Under the pieces are notes generated by a model. The model did no database searches. It saw nothing but the letters and a program-made list of their open reading frames with translations, and had not been told where the DNA came from. A stretch of 64,000 nucleotides of DNA from a virus: UHGV virus genome UHGV-0033546, one strand, 5' to 3'. Of the stretch, positions 15,437 to 52,257 are shown piece after piece. Numbering within the stretch: the first letter of the stretch is position 1; each line of letters starts with the position of its first letter. The position numbers were made by a program, and so were the translations under genes.

Positions 15437-16291
15437 TCACAATGAAGAAAATTCTTTAACTAAAGCCTGTAATGAAGCCTCTATTGGATATCCATTCTTA
15501 ACTAACATTTTCCTAAACATCACATGTTTAGGACGATTATATGATATCCACAATTCATACAATTTATCTTTATTATCCCAATGATAGCCTTTTCGTCGAG
15601 ATGCTATATGAGCTTTTCTAATCTCCGGATTTTTCCAACTAGCAGCTACTGAATTTAATATAGCTATTTTATATTCAGGTTTTGATAAAGCAGCACGAAC
15701 AGCCTTTTGGTGTTTAATTTTATTTTCTTCGTTATTAAACCATTCCCTTGAAGCCATTGAAATTTTTTGTTTTGTTTTAAAATTATTTAATCTTTCTTTG
15801 TTATCTTTCCTATTTTTTGCTACTGAAAAATATTTTAATGCCCTTTCTCTAGCAACATTTCTATTTTGTGGATTTGAATAATACTGTTGAAGCCTTTTTG
15901 ATATTGTGTCACTTACATCCTGTCTTATAAAACTATATTCAGCAGCTATTAAATCAACTTCGGCTAAAGATAAATTTTTATATGTTTTTCCTGACATCAT
16001 TCTATTTAAAGCATTTAGCATTTTTCCATTTTTACCTTTTGCTAATAAGAAATGTGCTTTGAAATGATTAAAATGACTTAAATTAACTAAATTCCATGTA
16101 GATTTTAAATATTCAGGAAATATTGATTTAGGAAGCACGTGGTGTGCTTCCGTTTTACCTGGAGTTTTAACAGTTGAATTCATAGAAATAAAATTAATAT
16201 AAGACTTGGCGTCTTCTTCACTCAACGCTAATTTTTCAACTAATTCCTTTATTAAAAATTCATCATTAATATCAAGTTTAAAATTCTTCAC
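15437..16291 (-). CDS. HNH homing endonuclease (mob-like), 284 aa
   Basis: HNH signature AHHVLPKS...WNLVNLS...HFNHFKAH near N-terminus; basic repeat-rich C-terminus; GTG start at 16291 overlapping upstream stop. Confidence 0.65.
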   Translation of the reverse strand: MKNFKLDINDEFLIKELVEKLALSEEDAKSYINFISMNSTVKTPGKTEAHHVLPKSIFPEYLKSTWNLVNLSHFNHFKAHFLLAKGKNGKMLNALNRMMSGKTYKNLSLAEVDLIAAEYSFIRQDVSDTISKRLQQYYSNPQNRNVARERALKYFSVAKNRKDNKERLNNFKTKQKISMASREWFNNEENKIKHQKAVRAALSKPEYKIAILNSVAASWKNPEIRKAHIASRRKGYHWDNKDKLYELWISYNRPKHVMFRKMLVKNGYPIEASLQALVKEFSSL

Positions 16292-34611: not shown

Positions 34612-34875
34612 TTATTTTAATGTTTGCCAAATTTTTACTGCTTCGCGACGAGATACTTCTACAGCTCCAAGTTCTACGGCTTTTTGGCGTCGCCGAGCAT
34701 GTAAGTCATAATGTTTAATGCGTTTATCTTGAAACCAAGAACGTTTCATTCCTATTGCTTCTGCCATTTTATGAAGCTCTTCAATATCTCCATCAGTGAA
34801 CATATGACAATTTTTAGTTGGATGACCGCGAAGTTTCCATCCATGATTCATTAAAACATCTACGTAAACTGTCAT
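34612..34875 (-). CDS. hypothetical protein, 87 aa
   Basis: Track ORF; ATGA overlap with an upstream 48-aa ORF. Confidence 0.45.
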   Translation of the reverse strand: MTVYVDVLMNHGWKLRGHPTKNCHMFTDGDIEELHKMAEAIGMKRSWFQDKRIKHYDLHARRRQKAVELGAVEVSRREAVKIWQTLK

Positions 34876-35021
34876 TGATTCTGCTCCAAATATGTTTCTA
34901 TAATTTTCTGAGCGAGATAAACTGCGTTATCTTCAGTTGCATCTTCTAAGAAACTTTCAAAACACTCTGAAATTTCTTCTGTGTCAATCAACTTTTTTAC
35001 TTCAATTGGTGTAATTTTCAT
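34874..35021 (-). CDS. hypothetical acidic peptide, 48 aa (below track cutoff)
   Basis: ATG at 35021 about 30 nt downstream of an early promoter; stop overlaps next ATG. Confidence 0.3.
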
Positions 35022-35116: not shown

Positions 35117-35136
35117 AGGGAGCCCGAAGGCTCCCT
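35117..35136 (-). terminator. hairpin with UUCG tetraloop immediately after the nucleotidyltransferase-like gene (8-bp stem)
   Basis: + strand AGGGAGCC-CGAA-GGCTCCCT. Confidence 0.45.
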
Positions 35137-35137
35137 A

Positions 35138-36151
35138 TCATTTATAATAACTTCGATGGTTTTCAAGATAGACCTTCTCAAGGAAGTCATCCCAGAAACT
35201 CATGTCTACTTTTTGCTGCATACCGTTCTTAGAAGCTTCAGTAGATGCTGCTTCTACTTGATCGACCACATCTTCCAAAAACTCTTGGACTGTTTTAAAT
35301 GGATGTTTACCCAACTTCACGTCGAGAATAAATGGAGCGTCTTGAAGTGGATAGACTAAGTCACCAGTTTTGTAAATTTCCAATAGTTGAAGTCCACCAC
35401 GACAAGCATGACTCAGAGCTTTCCAATCAATGCCCTCATTCGCTTCAGCCTTACGAGCACGTTCACCGTATTCAGCATCTAGTTTGTTCAAAGATTGCTT
35501 AAGCTCAATAAGAGAAAGTGTTGTCTGATATTTGCGACCCAACACAGTGTAGAACGTTTGTGGACCTGTTTTCTCATGATTATGGAATACCCATTCACAA
35601 AATTCGTTCTCTGGAAGACGATGCTTAATATCTTCAATTTTAACGCGACGTTGTCCTTGTGTTCCATCTTCTCGGTAGACATTCCGTTGATCAGGAATTT
35701 GATTAATTACTTTCAACACATCACGTAATGCAGCCAAACGAGAACCTTTAACACCATATTTAGAAGCTTGCTTACGAACATATCCTAAATAGGACTTCAT
35801 GTTGGTTGTATAAAAACGAGAACGGTTGTCTTGAATAAACTTCCACACATCAGGCAAATCAGATTTAACCACTAGTTCAGGTGGAGTGTGAAGCATATCT
35901 AATGCGACAGTTTCGCCATCTGCTGCTAATTTAAAGAAATACTTAAGACTGTATAGTTCATGGTCAATATCATCTTTAGTGTTTTTAGATGATGTATTGT
36001 TAGTGTTTTTACTCATGTGCTCTTTGACATTTCCGATAAGAATATCACGAGCAGGAGGAACAAAAATTTCTTTAAAATCTACATCAGATTCTGGGGTAGA
36101 AGTTCCATAAAGATGACTACCAAAATAGCTTTTCATTACTGTTTTCATCAT
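35138..36151 (-). CDS. nucleotidyltransferase-fold protein, 337 aa
   Basis: N-terminal hG[GS]x10DxD motif (FGSHLYGTSTPESDVDF) typical of minimal nucleotidyltransferases; C-terminal domain unassigned. Confidence 0.5.
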   Translation of the reverse strand: MMKTVMKSYFGSHLYGTSTPESDVDFKEIFVPPARDILIGNVKEHMSKNTNNTSSKNTKDDIDHELYSLKYFFKLAADGETVALDMLHTPPELVVKSDLPDVWKFIQDNRSRFYTTNMKSYLGYVRKQASKYGVKGSRLAALRDVLKVINQIPDQRNVYREDGTQGQRRVKIEDIKHRLPENEFCEWVFHNHEKTGPQTFYTVLGRKYQTTLSLIELKQSLNKLDAEYGERARKAEANEGIDWKALSHACRGGLQLLEIYKTGDLVYPLQDAPFILDVKLGKHPFKTVQEFLEDVVDQVEAASTEASKNGMQQKVDMSFWDDFLEKVYLENHRSYYK

Positions 36152-36609
36152 TCAGCCTTATATTCAATAACAGGACATACTTTAGCTTTACGAGCTTTTA
36201 AAAATTCGACGATAATCGATTTCTTGGGTTGAATAGGAGGTAAACCTTTAGCCTTCCTATCAATATTTTCTACATGTAAAGCATAATCCTTTTTCCATTT
36301 ATAATCTTTATATTTTTCATGTAGTTGCGCAGGAATAACAAATGAACCTATAATAAGTAAAACAATCAAAAGAGCAAATATAAATGCTGATGGAAGAAGA
36401 GTCCATAAACTACCAAAAATAAGCCAACGCTGTAGGCTTTCTGCACAAATAATTGTTAACCCTACGAGTATAGCACATCCAAAAATAGAAACGAAAAATG
36501 TAGGGATAACAATAGACCAAAAGTATGCACATAGTGTCTTAGGTCGTTTCCATTCGTCGTTAAACAGTTTGAATAATTTATAATGCCAAGAGTTTTCATT
36601 AATAATCAT
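36148..36609 (-). CDS. membrane protein, 153 aa
   Basis: Two to three TM helices; ATGA-coupled upstream of the nucleotidyltransferase-like gene. Confidence 0.5.
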   Translation of the reverse strand: MIINENSWHYKLFKLFNDEWKRPKTLCAYFWSIVIPTFFVSIFGCAILVGLTIICAESLQRWLIFGSLWTLLPSAFIFALLIVLLIIGSFVIPAQLHEKYKDYKWKKDYALHVENIDRKAKGLPPIQPKKSIIVEFLKARKAKVCPVIEYKAE

Positions 36610-36611
36610 AA

Positions 36612-37133
36612 TTATCCTTTCATTGAAGGTGTAACAGTTGTTAAATACTTAATCATAGCTTCAGCTTCTGATTTTGATAATGAAATTTCTCCATTGTTTT
36701 GACGAATAGAAATAAAATCCGGATGACGGTCACCACCAGCTTTTAAAACACACATATAAGTATCAACTTCATCTTCAATATCTGAAATGATTGAAGCAGT
36801 TCCACACGAATGTGGTTTTTGATAAATCAATACAGCTTTTCTTCCACCGTTTGACTGTTCATAAACTTTTAACACATCAAACAAATCACTTCTTTTATCA
36901 ATAGCTAAGATGTTGTTTTCATCTTCAATGTTAAATCCTTCGGATACTTCATAAAGTGTCACCCATAAATCGCCAATATCAATAACAGCGTTCACTTTTC
37001 CATGACTTTCAAGAGCATGACAAATTTTCTTGATTTCGTCATAACTCATTTTAATAATATCATCTCCTTGAATAAGAAAGATGTCATTTTTAAATTCAAC
37101 ACGAATTAAACCACTTCCACTTGAAATAAACAT
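36612..37133 (-). CDS. hypothetical protein, 173 aa (tandem paralog A)
   Basis: Shares N- and C-terminal motifs with the adjacent 183-aa ORF. Confidence 0.5.
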   Translation of the reverse strand: MFISSGSGLIRVEFKNDIFLIQGDDIIKMSYDEIKKICHALESHGKVNAVIDIGDLWVTLYEVSEGFNIEDENNILAIDKRSDLFDVLKVYEQSNGGRKAVLIYQKPHSCGTASIISDIEDEVDTYMCVLKAGGDRHPDFISIRQNNGEISLSKSEAEAMIKYLTTVTPSMKG

Positions 37134-37139
37134 ATTTCC

Positions 37140-37691
37140 TCACTTTGAAATCATAGTTGGAATGACAGAATCAAGATAAGTCTTTAGCGCAATAGCTTCG
37201 TCTTTGGTAAATGTGACAATATGCACTCGAGAATCATCAATTTGACGAACAAGTACAACATCACCATCTTCATAAGAAGTCTTGACATCCAAAGTCGTAG
37301 TATAGTTTGCAGCTACTGGATTAATAATGCTAGCACTGCGGTCTTTAGCCCATTGAAGTTTAGCCTTTTCGGGTGTTTCGACTGTTTCAGATTCCAAGAA
37401 TTCTTTCACCTTGGCAACGAATGTTTCCCAATTGTTGATAGAAATACATGCAAGTTCAGTTTCAATATTACCACCGTGAGAGCCACGATAAAAACGAACT
37501 TGGAGGTCGCCTGTAATAGTTATACTGGTAACTCCTGAGGGAGCATAAGATAAAATCGCAGCCAGTTCCATAGGAAGAATAATAATATTATCGTTTCCCT
37601 GCGTCAGAACGTATACATTACCACGTTTTTCGATAACCAGGTCACCGAATAAATTAGTTGTTTCAATTACAGCTTTCATATTATTCACCAA
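37140..37691 (-). CDS. hypothetical protein, 183 aa (tandem paralog B)
   Basis: Paralog of 36612-37133 (C-terminus TKDEAIALKTYLDSVIPTM versus SKSEAEAMIKYLTTVTPSM). Confidence 0.5.
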   Translation of the reverse strand: MVNNMKAVIETTNLFGDLVIEKRGNVYVLTQGNDNIIILPMELAAILSYAPSGVTSITITGDLQVRFYRGSHGGNIETELACISINNWETFVAKVKEFLESETVETPEKAKLQWAKDRSASIINPVAANYTTTLDVKTSYEDGDVVLVRQIDDSRVHIVTFTKDEAIALKTYLDSVIPTMISK

Positions 37692-37872: not shown

Positions 37873-37901
37873 ACTATACCATAACCTTGCCAACTTGTAA
37901 A
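37873..37901 (-). promoter_or_regulatory. early-type promoter: -35 TTTACA (37901-37896), spacer 17, -10 TATAGT (37878-37873)
   Basis: Minus-strand reading; upstream of an unlisted 36-aa hydrophobic ORF (ATG 37844, AGGAG SD). Confidence 0.4.
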
Positions 37902-51235: not shown

Positions 51236-51311
51236 TGGTCGAGGCAGTAGGGATCGAACCTACGACCTAGGACTTAGAAGGTCCTTGCTCTTCCTTCTGA
51301 GCTATGCCCCG
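51236..51311 (-). tRNA. tRNA-Arg (anticodon UCU), CCA encoded
   Basis: Manual cloverleaf: acceptor CGGGGCA/TGCCTCG, T-arm GTAGG-TTCGATC-CCTAC, anticodon loop CUUCUAA. Confidence 0.85.
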
Positions 51312-51315
51312 TAAT

Positions 51316-51391
51316 TGGGGTGACCGATGGGAGTCGAACCCATGACTACGAGAATCACAATCTCGAGTTCTACCAACTGAACTACGGCCAC
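51316..51391 (-). tRNA. tRNA-His (anticodon GUG), CCA encoded
   Basis: Manual cloverleaf: acceptor GTGGCCG/CGGTCAC, D-arm GTTC-AGTTGGTA-GAAC, anticodon loop UUGUGAU, T-loop TTCGACT. Confidence 0.8.
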
Positions 51392-51505
51392 ATTAATACC
51401 TACTCCAACAATCAAGATGTCTTCACACGAAATTAAGAGAAGAATGATCAGTTCAACCCTTATAATCGCGTCAAGTAGATATTAATGTGACAGTTGTCAC
51501 AAATT

Positions 51506-51580
51506 TGGCGGACATGCATGGATTCGAACCATGGACCAATTGATTAACAGTCAACTGCTCTACCACTGAGCTACACATCC
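51506..51580 (-). tRNA. tRNA-Asn (anticodon GUU), CCA encoded
   Basis: Manual cloverleaf: acceptor GGATGTG/CATGTCC, anticodon loop CUGUUAA, T-arm CATGG-TTCGAAT-CCATG. Confidence 0.8.
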
Positions 51581-51584
51581 AAAT

Positions 51585-51671
51585 TGGTGGGGAGTGATGG
51601 AGTCGAACCACCCGAGTCGCAATGACAATGGATTTACAGTCCACACCGCTACCTCTACGGGATAACTCCCC
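51585..51671 (-). tRNA. tRNA-Tyr (anticodon GUA), type II with long variable arm, CCA encoded
   Basis: Acceptor GGGGAGT/ACTCCCC, anticodon loop CUGUAAA, 15-nt variable arm, T-loop TTCGACT. Confidence 0.75.
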
Positions 51672-51684
51672 CTAATTCATAATT

Positions 51685-51759
51685 TGGTGGCCCTGGGTGG
51701 AATTGAACCACCATCTGGCGATTATGAGTCGCTTGCTTGAACCTTCCAGCTACAGGGCC
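51685..51759 (-). tRNA. tRNA with anticodon CAU (Met, or Ile if lysidine-modified as in the T4 tRNA-Ile)
   Basis: Acceptor GGCCCTG/CAGGGCC perfect 7 bp, anticodon loop CUCAUAA, T-arm GGTGG-TTCAATT-CCACC. Confidence 0.8.
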
Positions 51760-51760
51760 T

Positions 51761-51836
51761 TGGTGCTGATTGACGGAATCGAACCGCCGACATCCTCATT
51801 ACAAGTGAGGTGCTCTACCTACTGAGCTAAATCAGC
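51761..51836 (-). tRNA. tRNA-Thr (anticodon UGU), CCA encoded
   Basis: Acceptor GCTGATT/AATCAGC, anticodon loop CUUGUAA, T-loop TTCGATT. Confidence 0.85.
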
Positions 51837-51841
51837 AAAAC

Positions 51842-51931
51842 TGGCGGAGGCGATAGGATTTGAACCTATGAGTCGCCGGAGCGACTGCCGGTTTTCAAGA
51901 CCGGTGCATTAAACCACTCTGCCACGCCTCC
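51842..51931 (-). tRNA. tRNA-Ser (anticodon UGA), type II, CCA encoded
   Basis: Acceptor GGAGGCG/CGCCTCC, anticodon loop CUUGAAA, long variable arm. Confidence 0.85.
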
Positions 51932-51933
51932 AG

Positions 51934-52007
51934 TCTCCATACAAGGATTTGAACCTTGGACCTCCTGATCCCAAATCAGGCGCTCTACCAAACTGAGCTA
52001 CACGGAG
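51934..52007 (-). tRNA. tRNA-Pro (anticodon UGG), CCA not encoded
   Basis: Acceptor CTCCGTG/TATGGAG, anticodon loop UUUGGGA; 3' end is 2 nt from the tRNA-Ser 5' end. Confidence 0.85.
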
Positions 52008-52017
52008 TAAATTAAAT

Positions 52018-52091
<74 letters not shown>

Positions 52092-52096
52092 AAATT

Positions 52097-52183
52097 TGGT
52101 GCGAGAAGTGGGACTCGAACCCACAAGGAAATCATTCCGCAGCATTTTAAGTGCTGTGCCTTTACCAATTTGACCATTCTCGC
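52097..52183 (-). tRNA. tRNA-Leu (anticodon UAA), type II, CCA encoded
   Basis: Acceptor GCGAGAA/TTCTCGC, anticodon loop CUUAAAA, long variable arm. Confidence 0.85.
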
Positions 52184-52184
52184 G

Positions 52185-52257
52185 CTGGGAATAAAGGACT
52201 CGAACCTTTGCATCCTGGAATCAAAATCCAGTGCCTTACCAACTTGGCTAATTCCCA
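52185..52257 (-). tRNA. tRNA-Gln (anticodon UUG), CCA not encoded
   Basis: Acceptor TGGGAAT/ATTCCCA, anticodon loop UUUUGAU; 3' end is 1 nt from the tRNA-Leu 5' end. Confidence 0.85.

Follow-up and report, generated by a model that had tools for sequence, protein, structure and literature searches.

The question raised by this locus is whether two overlapping viral genes, one for a putative nucleotidyltransferase (NTase) and one for a small membrane protein, work together or are separate neighbours, and what the NTase acts upon. The genes lie in a 64,000 nucleotide stretch of UHGV virus genome UHGV-0033546, here called the window. By its sequence, the window is that of a T4-like phage: the region is ~95% identical in DNA to many Tequatrovirus (T4-like) genomes, and the 337 amino acid NTase open reading frame (ORF) shows 95% identity (320/336) to NrdC.11 of T4 (AAD42629.1), a 38.9 kDa "conserved hypothetical protein". 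We regard it as moderately probable that this NrdC.11-type NTase adds nucleotides to RNA 3′ ends in tRNA repair, together with PseT and Rnl1, and that the membrane gene is a separate neighbour.

Judged by its database matches, the 337 amino acid ORF is an ortholog of T4 nrdC.11 and a member of the RlaP (PF10127) branch of the Pol-beta nucleotidyltransferases. The Pfam RlaP profile gives 44.5 bits (gathering score 23; E-value=2e-11), the match spanning residues 7–135 only, which correspond to profile positions 23–142 of 249. PHROG 388, "nucleotidyltransferase", matches at 3e-136, and a precomputed PF10127 assignment is attached to all of the listed close homologs. In a 2025 preprint that characterises two RlaPs of Pseudomonas (PMC12776372), T4 NrdC.11 is counted among the RlaPs and falls in cluster 5 of the PF10127 similarity network; as T4 nrdC.11, of the RlaP family, the gene is already catalogued. 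The initial annotation of the window had the NTase fold right and missed the identity of this long-catalogued gene. An exhaustive HMMER search returned 3455 representative homologs at E≤1e-3 and 827 at E≤1e-30, the latter aligning over the full length; the roughly 250 residues that had been left unassigned are in fact conserved throughout the clade. In GenBank and UniRef, the NrdC.11 orthologs and their neighbouring genes are very often labelled "thioredoxin", and one is a "putative HNH homing endonuclease". For NrdC.11 orthologs the "thioredoxin" label is wrong, the name having apparently leaked from the gene symbol nrdC.x.

Other NTase families were also considered. Searches of the PDB sequences with the single protein and with a 75-sequence profile revealed nothing relevant, PADLOC gave zero matches for the NTase and for the membrane protein, and NCBIfam yielded sub-threshold noise only. 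A CD-NTase of the CBASS type was rejected, there being no Pfam (SMODS) match at E≤1 and no PADLOC match, as was a CCA-adding enzyme or poly(A) polymerase, the PolyA_pol head and neck domains being unmatched in Pfam and NCBIfam at E≤1. A minimal NTase of the MNT/NTP_transf_2 kind was likewise discarded (NTP_transf_2, 13.6 bits, cutoff 21; MntA, 13.3 bits, cutoff 60); a HEPN gene, sought among the window ORFs as the partner in an MNT/type VII toxin-antitoxin system, was not found adjacent to the NTase. Assignment to the KNTase family was rejected on hidden Markov model (HMM) thresholds.

The catalytic residues were followed in an alignment of 75 NTase homologs of 33–55% identity, with residues given in T4 numbering. 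G10, S11, D22, D24 and D62 are invariant (75/75), and so are N56, Y131, R230, K243, H247 and R250. In hhalign the third carboxylate, D62, is matched to an Asp that is invariant in canonical RlaP. The ORF opens with MMKTVMKSYFGSHLYGTSTPESDVDF, which contains the minimal NTase motif quoted in the initial annotation. The AlphaFold2 model (predicted local distance difference test, pLDDT, 94.2; predicted template modelling score, pTM, 0.83) has an alpha/beta core in which strand 1 is followed by the GS turn, strand 2 opens with the DxD motif and D62 sits on a strand farther on; beyond the core it predicts helical segments, a beta-rich insert (strands 154–158, 164–168, 184–191, 195–202 and 205–208) and a C-terminal helical bundle. 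Residues 141–200 are the least conserved (mean column identity 0.20–0.24), and the stretch 150–210 varies between 40 and 80 residues in length across the clade. Foldseek found no match to the model in the PDB at E≤1e-3. With the motif residues invariant in distant homologs and the fold confidently predicted by AlphaFold, the protein is a genuine Pol-beta-fold nucleotidyltransferase and apparently catalytically competent.

The genomic context of the family was investigated at 80 bacterial and archaeal loci carrying the closest cellular relatives of the NTase (33–54% identity over the full length), at which the flanking genes were called and clustered and the recurrent clusters annotated. RNA-repair genes occur within 6 kb of the NTase at 16 of the 80: Pnkp at seven, RtcB at seven, Hen1 at four and Ro60/TROVE at four. 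They are mostly on the same strand as the NTase, often at a distance of only –3 to +11 bp, and in five of the seven Pnkp loci the kinase-phosphatase-ligase lies directly upstream on the same strand with gaps in this range. By our own estimate, which assumes one copy per family per genome among a few thousand genes, roughly one such locus in 80 would be expected by chance. It is through these relatives, operonic with RtcB, Pnkp and Hen1 as is RlaP itself, that the NTase of the T4 clade displays the RNA-repair association of the RlaP family. Since cellular relatives adjoin Pnkp, Hen1, RtcB or Ro60, nucleotide addition to RNA 3′ ends in tRNA repair is favoured. Among the several roles suggested by the initial annotation, that of a tRNA- or nucleic acid-modifying enzyme is therefore preferred on the grounds of RlaP membership, repair-gene neighbours and the biochemistry of canonical RlaP (PMC12776372).

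A shorter, canonical RlaP paralog is found no more than 300 bp downstream of the NrdC.11-type NTase at 11 cellular loci, and at two more it lies farther off (1.6 and 4.3 kb). The tandem loci include L059 (6001–7802), L011, L026, L036, L056, L062, L064, L077, L078 and L081, the gap between the two genes being –1 to 84 bp in most cases; in Asticcacaulis (L059) both are downstream of Pnkp. These tandems suggest two non-redundant RlaP activities within one repair operon.

In the mechanism that we propose, the N-terminal domain would bind a nucleoside triphosphate (NTP) and two metal ions through D22, D24 and D62, while the conserved basic C-terminal face (R230, K243, H247 and R250) would form the other wall of the cleft and hold the 3′-OH end of the RNA, to which one or a few nucleotides would then be added without a template. 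In the infected cell the NTase would complement, in trans, the healing and sealing carried out by phage PseT (Pnkp) and Rnl1, restoring the nucleotides trimmed from tRNAs cleaved by host anticodon nucleases of the RloC type, so that ligation might regenerate a usable tRNA. On this view the enzyme would assist RNA repair or counter a host defence; which RNA it uses, how many nucleotides it adds and whether it counters defence are matters of inference.

Several published observations bear on this scheme. The RlaPs of Pseudomonas add one or two nucleoside monophosphates to RNA 3′-OH ends, with a preference for Mn2+ and for mimics of cleaved tRNA, are inactive on DNA and protein, and raise the aminoacylation of a repaired tRNA that is missing a nucleotide (PMC12776372). 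A jumbo-phage review ranks RlaP first in prevalence among the phage NTases predicted to restore nucleotides before ligation (PMC7824862). T4 survives deletion of the nrdC.11-mobD.3 segment (PMC9825161), which fits a conditional counter-defence gene. Phage records with Rnl1 and with the NTase are close to equal in number for Klebsiella (287 and 286), Shigella (83 and 83), Aeromonas (77 and 75) and Acinetobacter (69 and 69), and on the T4 map the Rnl1 gene (rnlA) lies ~80 kb from nrdC.11.

A number of points weigh against the proposed role. The co-occurrence of Rnl1 and the NTase is confounded by the shared ancestry of T4-like phages. No RNA-repair neighbour was seen at 64 of the 80 cellular loci and, among 78 diverse viral loci, no ligase, Pnkp, Hen1 or Ro60 gene was found beside the NTase; the single RtcB gene is 3.4 kb away on the opposite strand. 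The phage gene in this respect differs from the characterised RlaP setting, where a ligase is adjacent. Though the window NTase shares the catalytic triad of the characterised enzymes (PfRlaP and PaRlaP; Burroughs & Aravind 2016; PMC12776372) and, going by the AlphaFold2 model, probably also the plan of an NTase domain followed by a helical C-terminal domain, which in the PfRlaP crystal structure forms a cleft with the NTase domain, it is some 70–80 residues longer, possesses the variable beta insert, and falls in PF10127 cluster 5 rather than 1a. Alignment by hhalign to ten of the canonical short RlaPs from the tandem loci covers residues 3–90 only (probability 52%), the C-terminal part remaining unaligned at the profile level. 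Transfer of the published biochemistry is limited because only the NTase core aligns with canonical short RlaPs, and the C-terminal two-thirds, including the insert, may be highly diverged from those of the assayed enzymes, or different, and may give another substrate. The tandem pairs (11–13 of 80 cellular loci) likewise suggest that NrdC.11-type and canonical RlaP proteins are not redundant. Finally, the RloC literature calls wobble excision potentially "repair-defying" for T4 and reports no rescue; whether phage repair copes with it was left undecided in those papers.

The neighbouring ORF encodes a 153 residue protein with two long hydrophobic blocks (Kyte-Doolittle window centres 34–51 and 71–89). 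The AlphaFold model (pLDDT 81.8) has helices at 26–65 and 68–120, so that hydropathy and structure prediction both indicate a two-helix hairpin; the initial annotation was right to call it a membrane protein, and "multi-transmembrane" describes it less well. PHROG 944, "membrane protein", matches the ORF, as do 918 phage records; no Pfam, NCBIfam or PADLOC family does. In single-sequence and profile searches of 5.8 billion proteins the family was confined to T4-like phages (Straboviridae), and no cellular or annotated family was reached; nor was there a match in E. coli genomes. Foldseek comparison of the model with the PDB, HalA included, gave no match with an E-value below about 1. In an alignment of 22–25 diverse members, the hydrophobic core is weakly conserved and the termini are conserved, with H9, C27, Y29, K143 and C145 invariant. 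In the model the N-terminal strand is paired with the C-terminal one, which would bring the two termini, with their invariant His and Cys residues, together in a single small domain on one face of the membrane; this domain may hold a metal site. In some phages the family is duplicated, with tandem copies in L139 (3712–4592) and copies flanking the NTase in L146 (3931–4413 and 6312–6734), whereas T2 and several other Tequatroviruses have a version shortened at its N-terminal end (proteins P0274 and P0276–P0278 among the family members noted). From its sequence the 153 residue protein would appear to be a separate, fast-evolving, phage-specific membrane hairpin.

The initial annotation had suggested that the two genes could form a functional module, with nucleotide signalling as one of its possible tasks. 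In such a two-component system, Hailong- or CBASS-like, a nucleotide or oligonucleotide made by the NTase would gate the membrane protein or be sensed by it, and the pair could serve in superinfection exclusion, in the timing of lysis or as a decoy against Hailong. It was weighed at the 78 viral loci mentioned above, with membrane homologs sought by iterated HMM and NTase identity measured against the window protein. Of the 78, 46 carry the membrane gene upstream of the NTase in the same orientation, loci of Acinetobacter phages among them, and the invariant residues indicate a family under selection. In the closest group (NTase identity ≥76%), 14 of 15 loci have the gene, which in 12 precedes and overlaps the NTase start (–4 or –1 nt). 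The overlap is nevertheless restricted to this clade: at 60–75% identity all 24 loci have the membrane gene, but 406–1836 bp away with other ORFs between, and below 60% it is present in just 8 of 39, namely 5 of 20 at 50–59% (349–1668 bp away) and 3 of 19 below 50% (587–2607 bp). Three ORFs intervene in Klebsiella phage JD18 and one in Acinetobacter phage AbTZA1. In T4 the slot is filled by MobD, and no membrane-protein homolog was found in the 44–59 kb region of that genome. In IMG/VR locus L088 (4817–6011), whose NTase is 94% identical, a deletion has removed the membrane ORF and both of the y05I paralogs that accompany it, joining a MobD.3-like 66 residue ORF, with overlap, to nrdC.11, which is retained. 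The membrane gene is missing at all 80 cellular loci, where no small membrane ORF recurs, several of the copies in Tequatroviruses are truncated, and in the same genomes the membrane protein diverges faster (28–50% identity) than the NTase (69–80%).

Because the overlap occurs only in the closest clade and the membrane gene is missing from T4, from L088 and from 80/80 cellular loci, no fixed partnership is indicated, and the overlap is most likely a lineage-specific product of compact operon packing; the conserved order of the two genes is in itself weak evidence, synteny being normal in T4-like genomes. Nor do the comparisons with known systems help the module. The closest solved fold to the NTase is HalB of Hailong (PDB 9dbh and 9dbj), 136 residues of which align at 17% identity; the match appears to be limited to the generic NTase core, and the profile search of PDB sequences does not find HalB. 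The hairpin resembles neither the HalA channel nor any other solved structure. Hailong, moreover, is a conserved operon of membrane effector and NTase in a bacterial defence island, whereas here the pairing is not conserved and the host of the genes is a lytic phage. Signalling by nucleotides fares no better, with no CD-NTase or PADLOC match and a membrane protein unlike known effectors, and the module as a whole is considered very unlikely. At the lowest end of the scale, and more improbable still, we place a genuine lineage-specific pair of NTase and His-Cys hairpin, in which an oligonucleotide is used for gating or is sequestered, echoing or countering Hailong in the service of superinfection exclusion or anti-defence. 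A milder form of that idea, of the same low standing, holds that NrdC.11-type proteins are functionally distinct from canonical RlaP, which would explain the bacterial tandem pairs and the unrelated C-terminal region. Two substrates other than a broken tRNA are also to be considered. The NTase might act on the acceptor ends of tRNAs, rebuilding a damaged or missing CCA on host or phage molecules, for example on phage tRNAs in which it is not encoded or on tRNAs trimmed by host defence exonucleases. Eleven phage tRNA genes lie 15 kb away in the window, two of which (Pro and Gln) lack an encoded CCA; canonical RlaP takes any RNA 3′-OH and, given total RNA, labels full-length species of tRNA and rRNA size, and the Pol-beta NTases include the CCA-adding enzymes. 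We nonetheless judge this role unlikely, as neither Pfam nor NCBIfam gives a CCA-adding or poly(A) polymerase match, canonical RlaP has little NTP specificity and prefers the 5′-half end of a cleaved-tRNA mimic to the acceptor end, and the cellular neighbours (Pnkp, Hen1, RtcB and Ro60) are genes of break repair and not of tRNA maturation. Alternatively, the NrdC.11 clade could modify a protein or small molecule, as do MNT and kanamycin NTase, or add nucleotides to host tRNA or other RNA ends offensively and so shut off host translation in the manner of MenT-type toxins. No homology to canonical RlaP is detectable in the C-terminal ~245 residues; KNTase/ANT(4′), MNT-HEPN and lincosamide NTases are among the structural neighbours, the C-terminal bundle is HEPN/KNTase_C-like, and the tandem pairs suggest distinct activities. 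The NTP_transf_2 and MntA scores are, however, far under threshold, kanamycin NTase/ANT(4′) and MNT-HEPN show no family-level sequence match, no conserved toxin-antitoxin-like partner is present, and canonical RlaP leaves proteins and DNA unmodified. Since bacterial members of this clade share operons with Pnkp or RtcB, the context points to an RNA end rather than to antibiotic or toxin modification, and this substrate, too, seems improbable. Addition to RNA 3′ ends in tRNA repair remains the reading that we prefer.

The features of the locus and its surroundings are collected in the table. Both the NTase and the membrane ORF are, on sequence grounds, real genes and not chance ORFs, because of the 3455 representative NTase homologs (E≤1e-3) and the 918 phage records matching the membrane ORF. 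The conserved start of the NTase is the second ATG, at 36148, which gives a protein of 336 residues as in T4 and other orthologs. The junction reads GAATGATGAAA: the first ATG shares four nucleotides (ATGA) with the TGA stop of the membrane ORF and the second overlaps it by one nucleotide (TGATG), so that translational coupling would be compatible with either start codon. The overlap noted in the initial annotation is therefore present, with both genes on the minus strand, and the terminator that it assigned to the NTase is supported by the hairpin, AGGGAGCC-UUCG-GGCUCCCU followed by UUUUUUAUUU, which begins two bases past the stop codon. Its folding energy is –17.7 kcal/mol (z = –3.9), an equally good fold was obtained in 0 of 200 shuffles, and phage D5505 has an equivalent hairpin that carries a terminator annotation.

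Table. Position and strand of the features at and around the nrdC.11 locus, in window coordinates
Feature	Position	Strand	Basis or remarks
NrdC.11-type RlaP-family nucleotidyltransferase (NTase), coding sequence	35138–36151	minus	ORF list; 337 residues from first ATG
Catalytic signature FGSHLYGTSTPESDVDF	36074–36124	minus	hG[GS] (G10, S11) and metal-binding D22-x-D24
D62 codon, third catalytic carboxylate	35963–35965	minus	Invariant; on beta-strand, residues 61–67
Variable beta-rich insert subdomain, residues ~141–208	35525–35728	minus	Between helical segments
Conserved C-terminal block YG.R...DWKA.SHA.R (Y227–R250)	35399–35470	minus	Presumed NTP/RNA-binding face of helical domain
153 residue membrane protein, coding sequence	36148–36609	minus	ORF list, hydropathy, PHROG 944
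Stop/start junction ATGATG	36146–36151	minus	TGA stop of membrane ORF overlaps NTase start codon(s)
Intrinsic terminator hairpin	35117–35136	minus	8-bp GC-rich stem, UUCG loop, then U-tract ending ~35108
Sigma-70-like promoter match	37873–37901	minus	Consensus match only; not used as evidence
y05I paralog, adjacent to membrane ORF	36612–37133	minus	Pfam T4_y05I_N and T4_y05I_C
y05I paralog, second copy	37140–37691	minus	Pfam T4_y05I_N and T4_y05I_C
49 residue ORF	34872–35021	minus	
DUF4031 gene, 87 residues	34612–34875	minus	Overlaps the 49 residue ORF
NrdC.10 ortholog, 328 residues	33574–34560	minus	GAAGIGKT, Walker-A-like motif
MobD-like protein	15449–16153	minus	30% identical to T4 MobD (HNH homing endonuclease)
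tRNA cluster (Arg, His, Asn, Tyr, Met, Thr, Ser, Pro, Gly, Leu, Gln)	51236–52257	minus	CCA encoded in 9/11

In T4, nrdC.11 sits at the corresponding map position, with nrdC.10 on one side and the mobD.1 block on the other, and is likewise encoded on that strand. T4 differs in having the HNH homing endonuclease MobD immediately upstream of nrdC.11 and in lacking the 153 residue membrane ORF, the second y05I paralog and the flanking DUF4031 and 49 residue ORFs; the latter two, which in the window lie between the nrdC.10 and nrdC.11 orthologs, have no match in the 44–59 kb region of T4. The MobD-like protein indicates that the phage carries a mob-type endonuclease elsewhere, the nrdC.11/mobD.1 slot being free of one. 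The adjacent y05I paralogs share 28% identity and belong to the T4 MobD.1 family ("putative transcription factor"), of which T4 has one copy; as members of the apparent transcription unit, these genes suggest no enzymatic link. The NrdC.10 ortholog gives sub-threshold matches to AAA/STAND-type NTPases (AAA_14, 23.5 bits, cutoff 27).

NrdC.11 has been kept in ~1500 sequenced T4-like phages. The idea that such enzymes restore tRNA nucleotides is already in print (Burroughs & Aravind 2016; Iyer et al. 2021; Carruthers et al. 2025), and no new kind of system is proposed here. What is gained is that the cellular relatives of the T4 clade display the RNA-repair association, that the C-terminal region of the clade differs from that of the characterised RlaPs, that the membrane "partner" can be dismissed as a neighbour peculiar to this lineage, and that the "thioredoxin" annotation is corrected. 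If NrdC.11 does restore trimmed nucleotides, it would be the missing third activity of tRNA healing and sealing in T4, beside PseT and Rnl1, and would answer a question pending since 2008, namely whether a phage can counter the "repair-defying", wobble-excising RloC.

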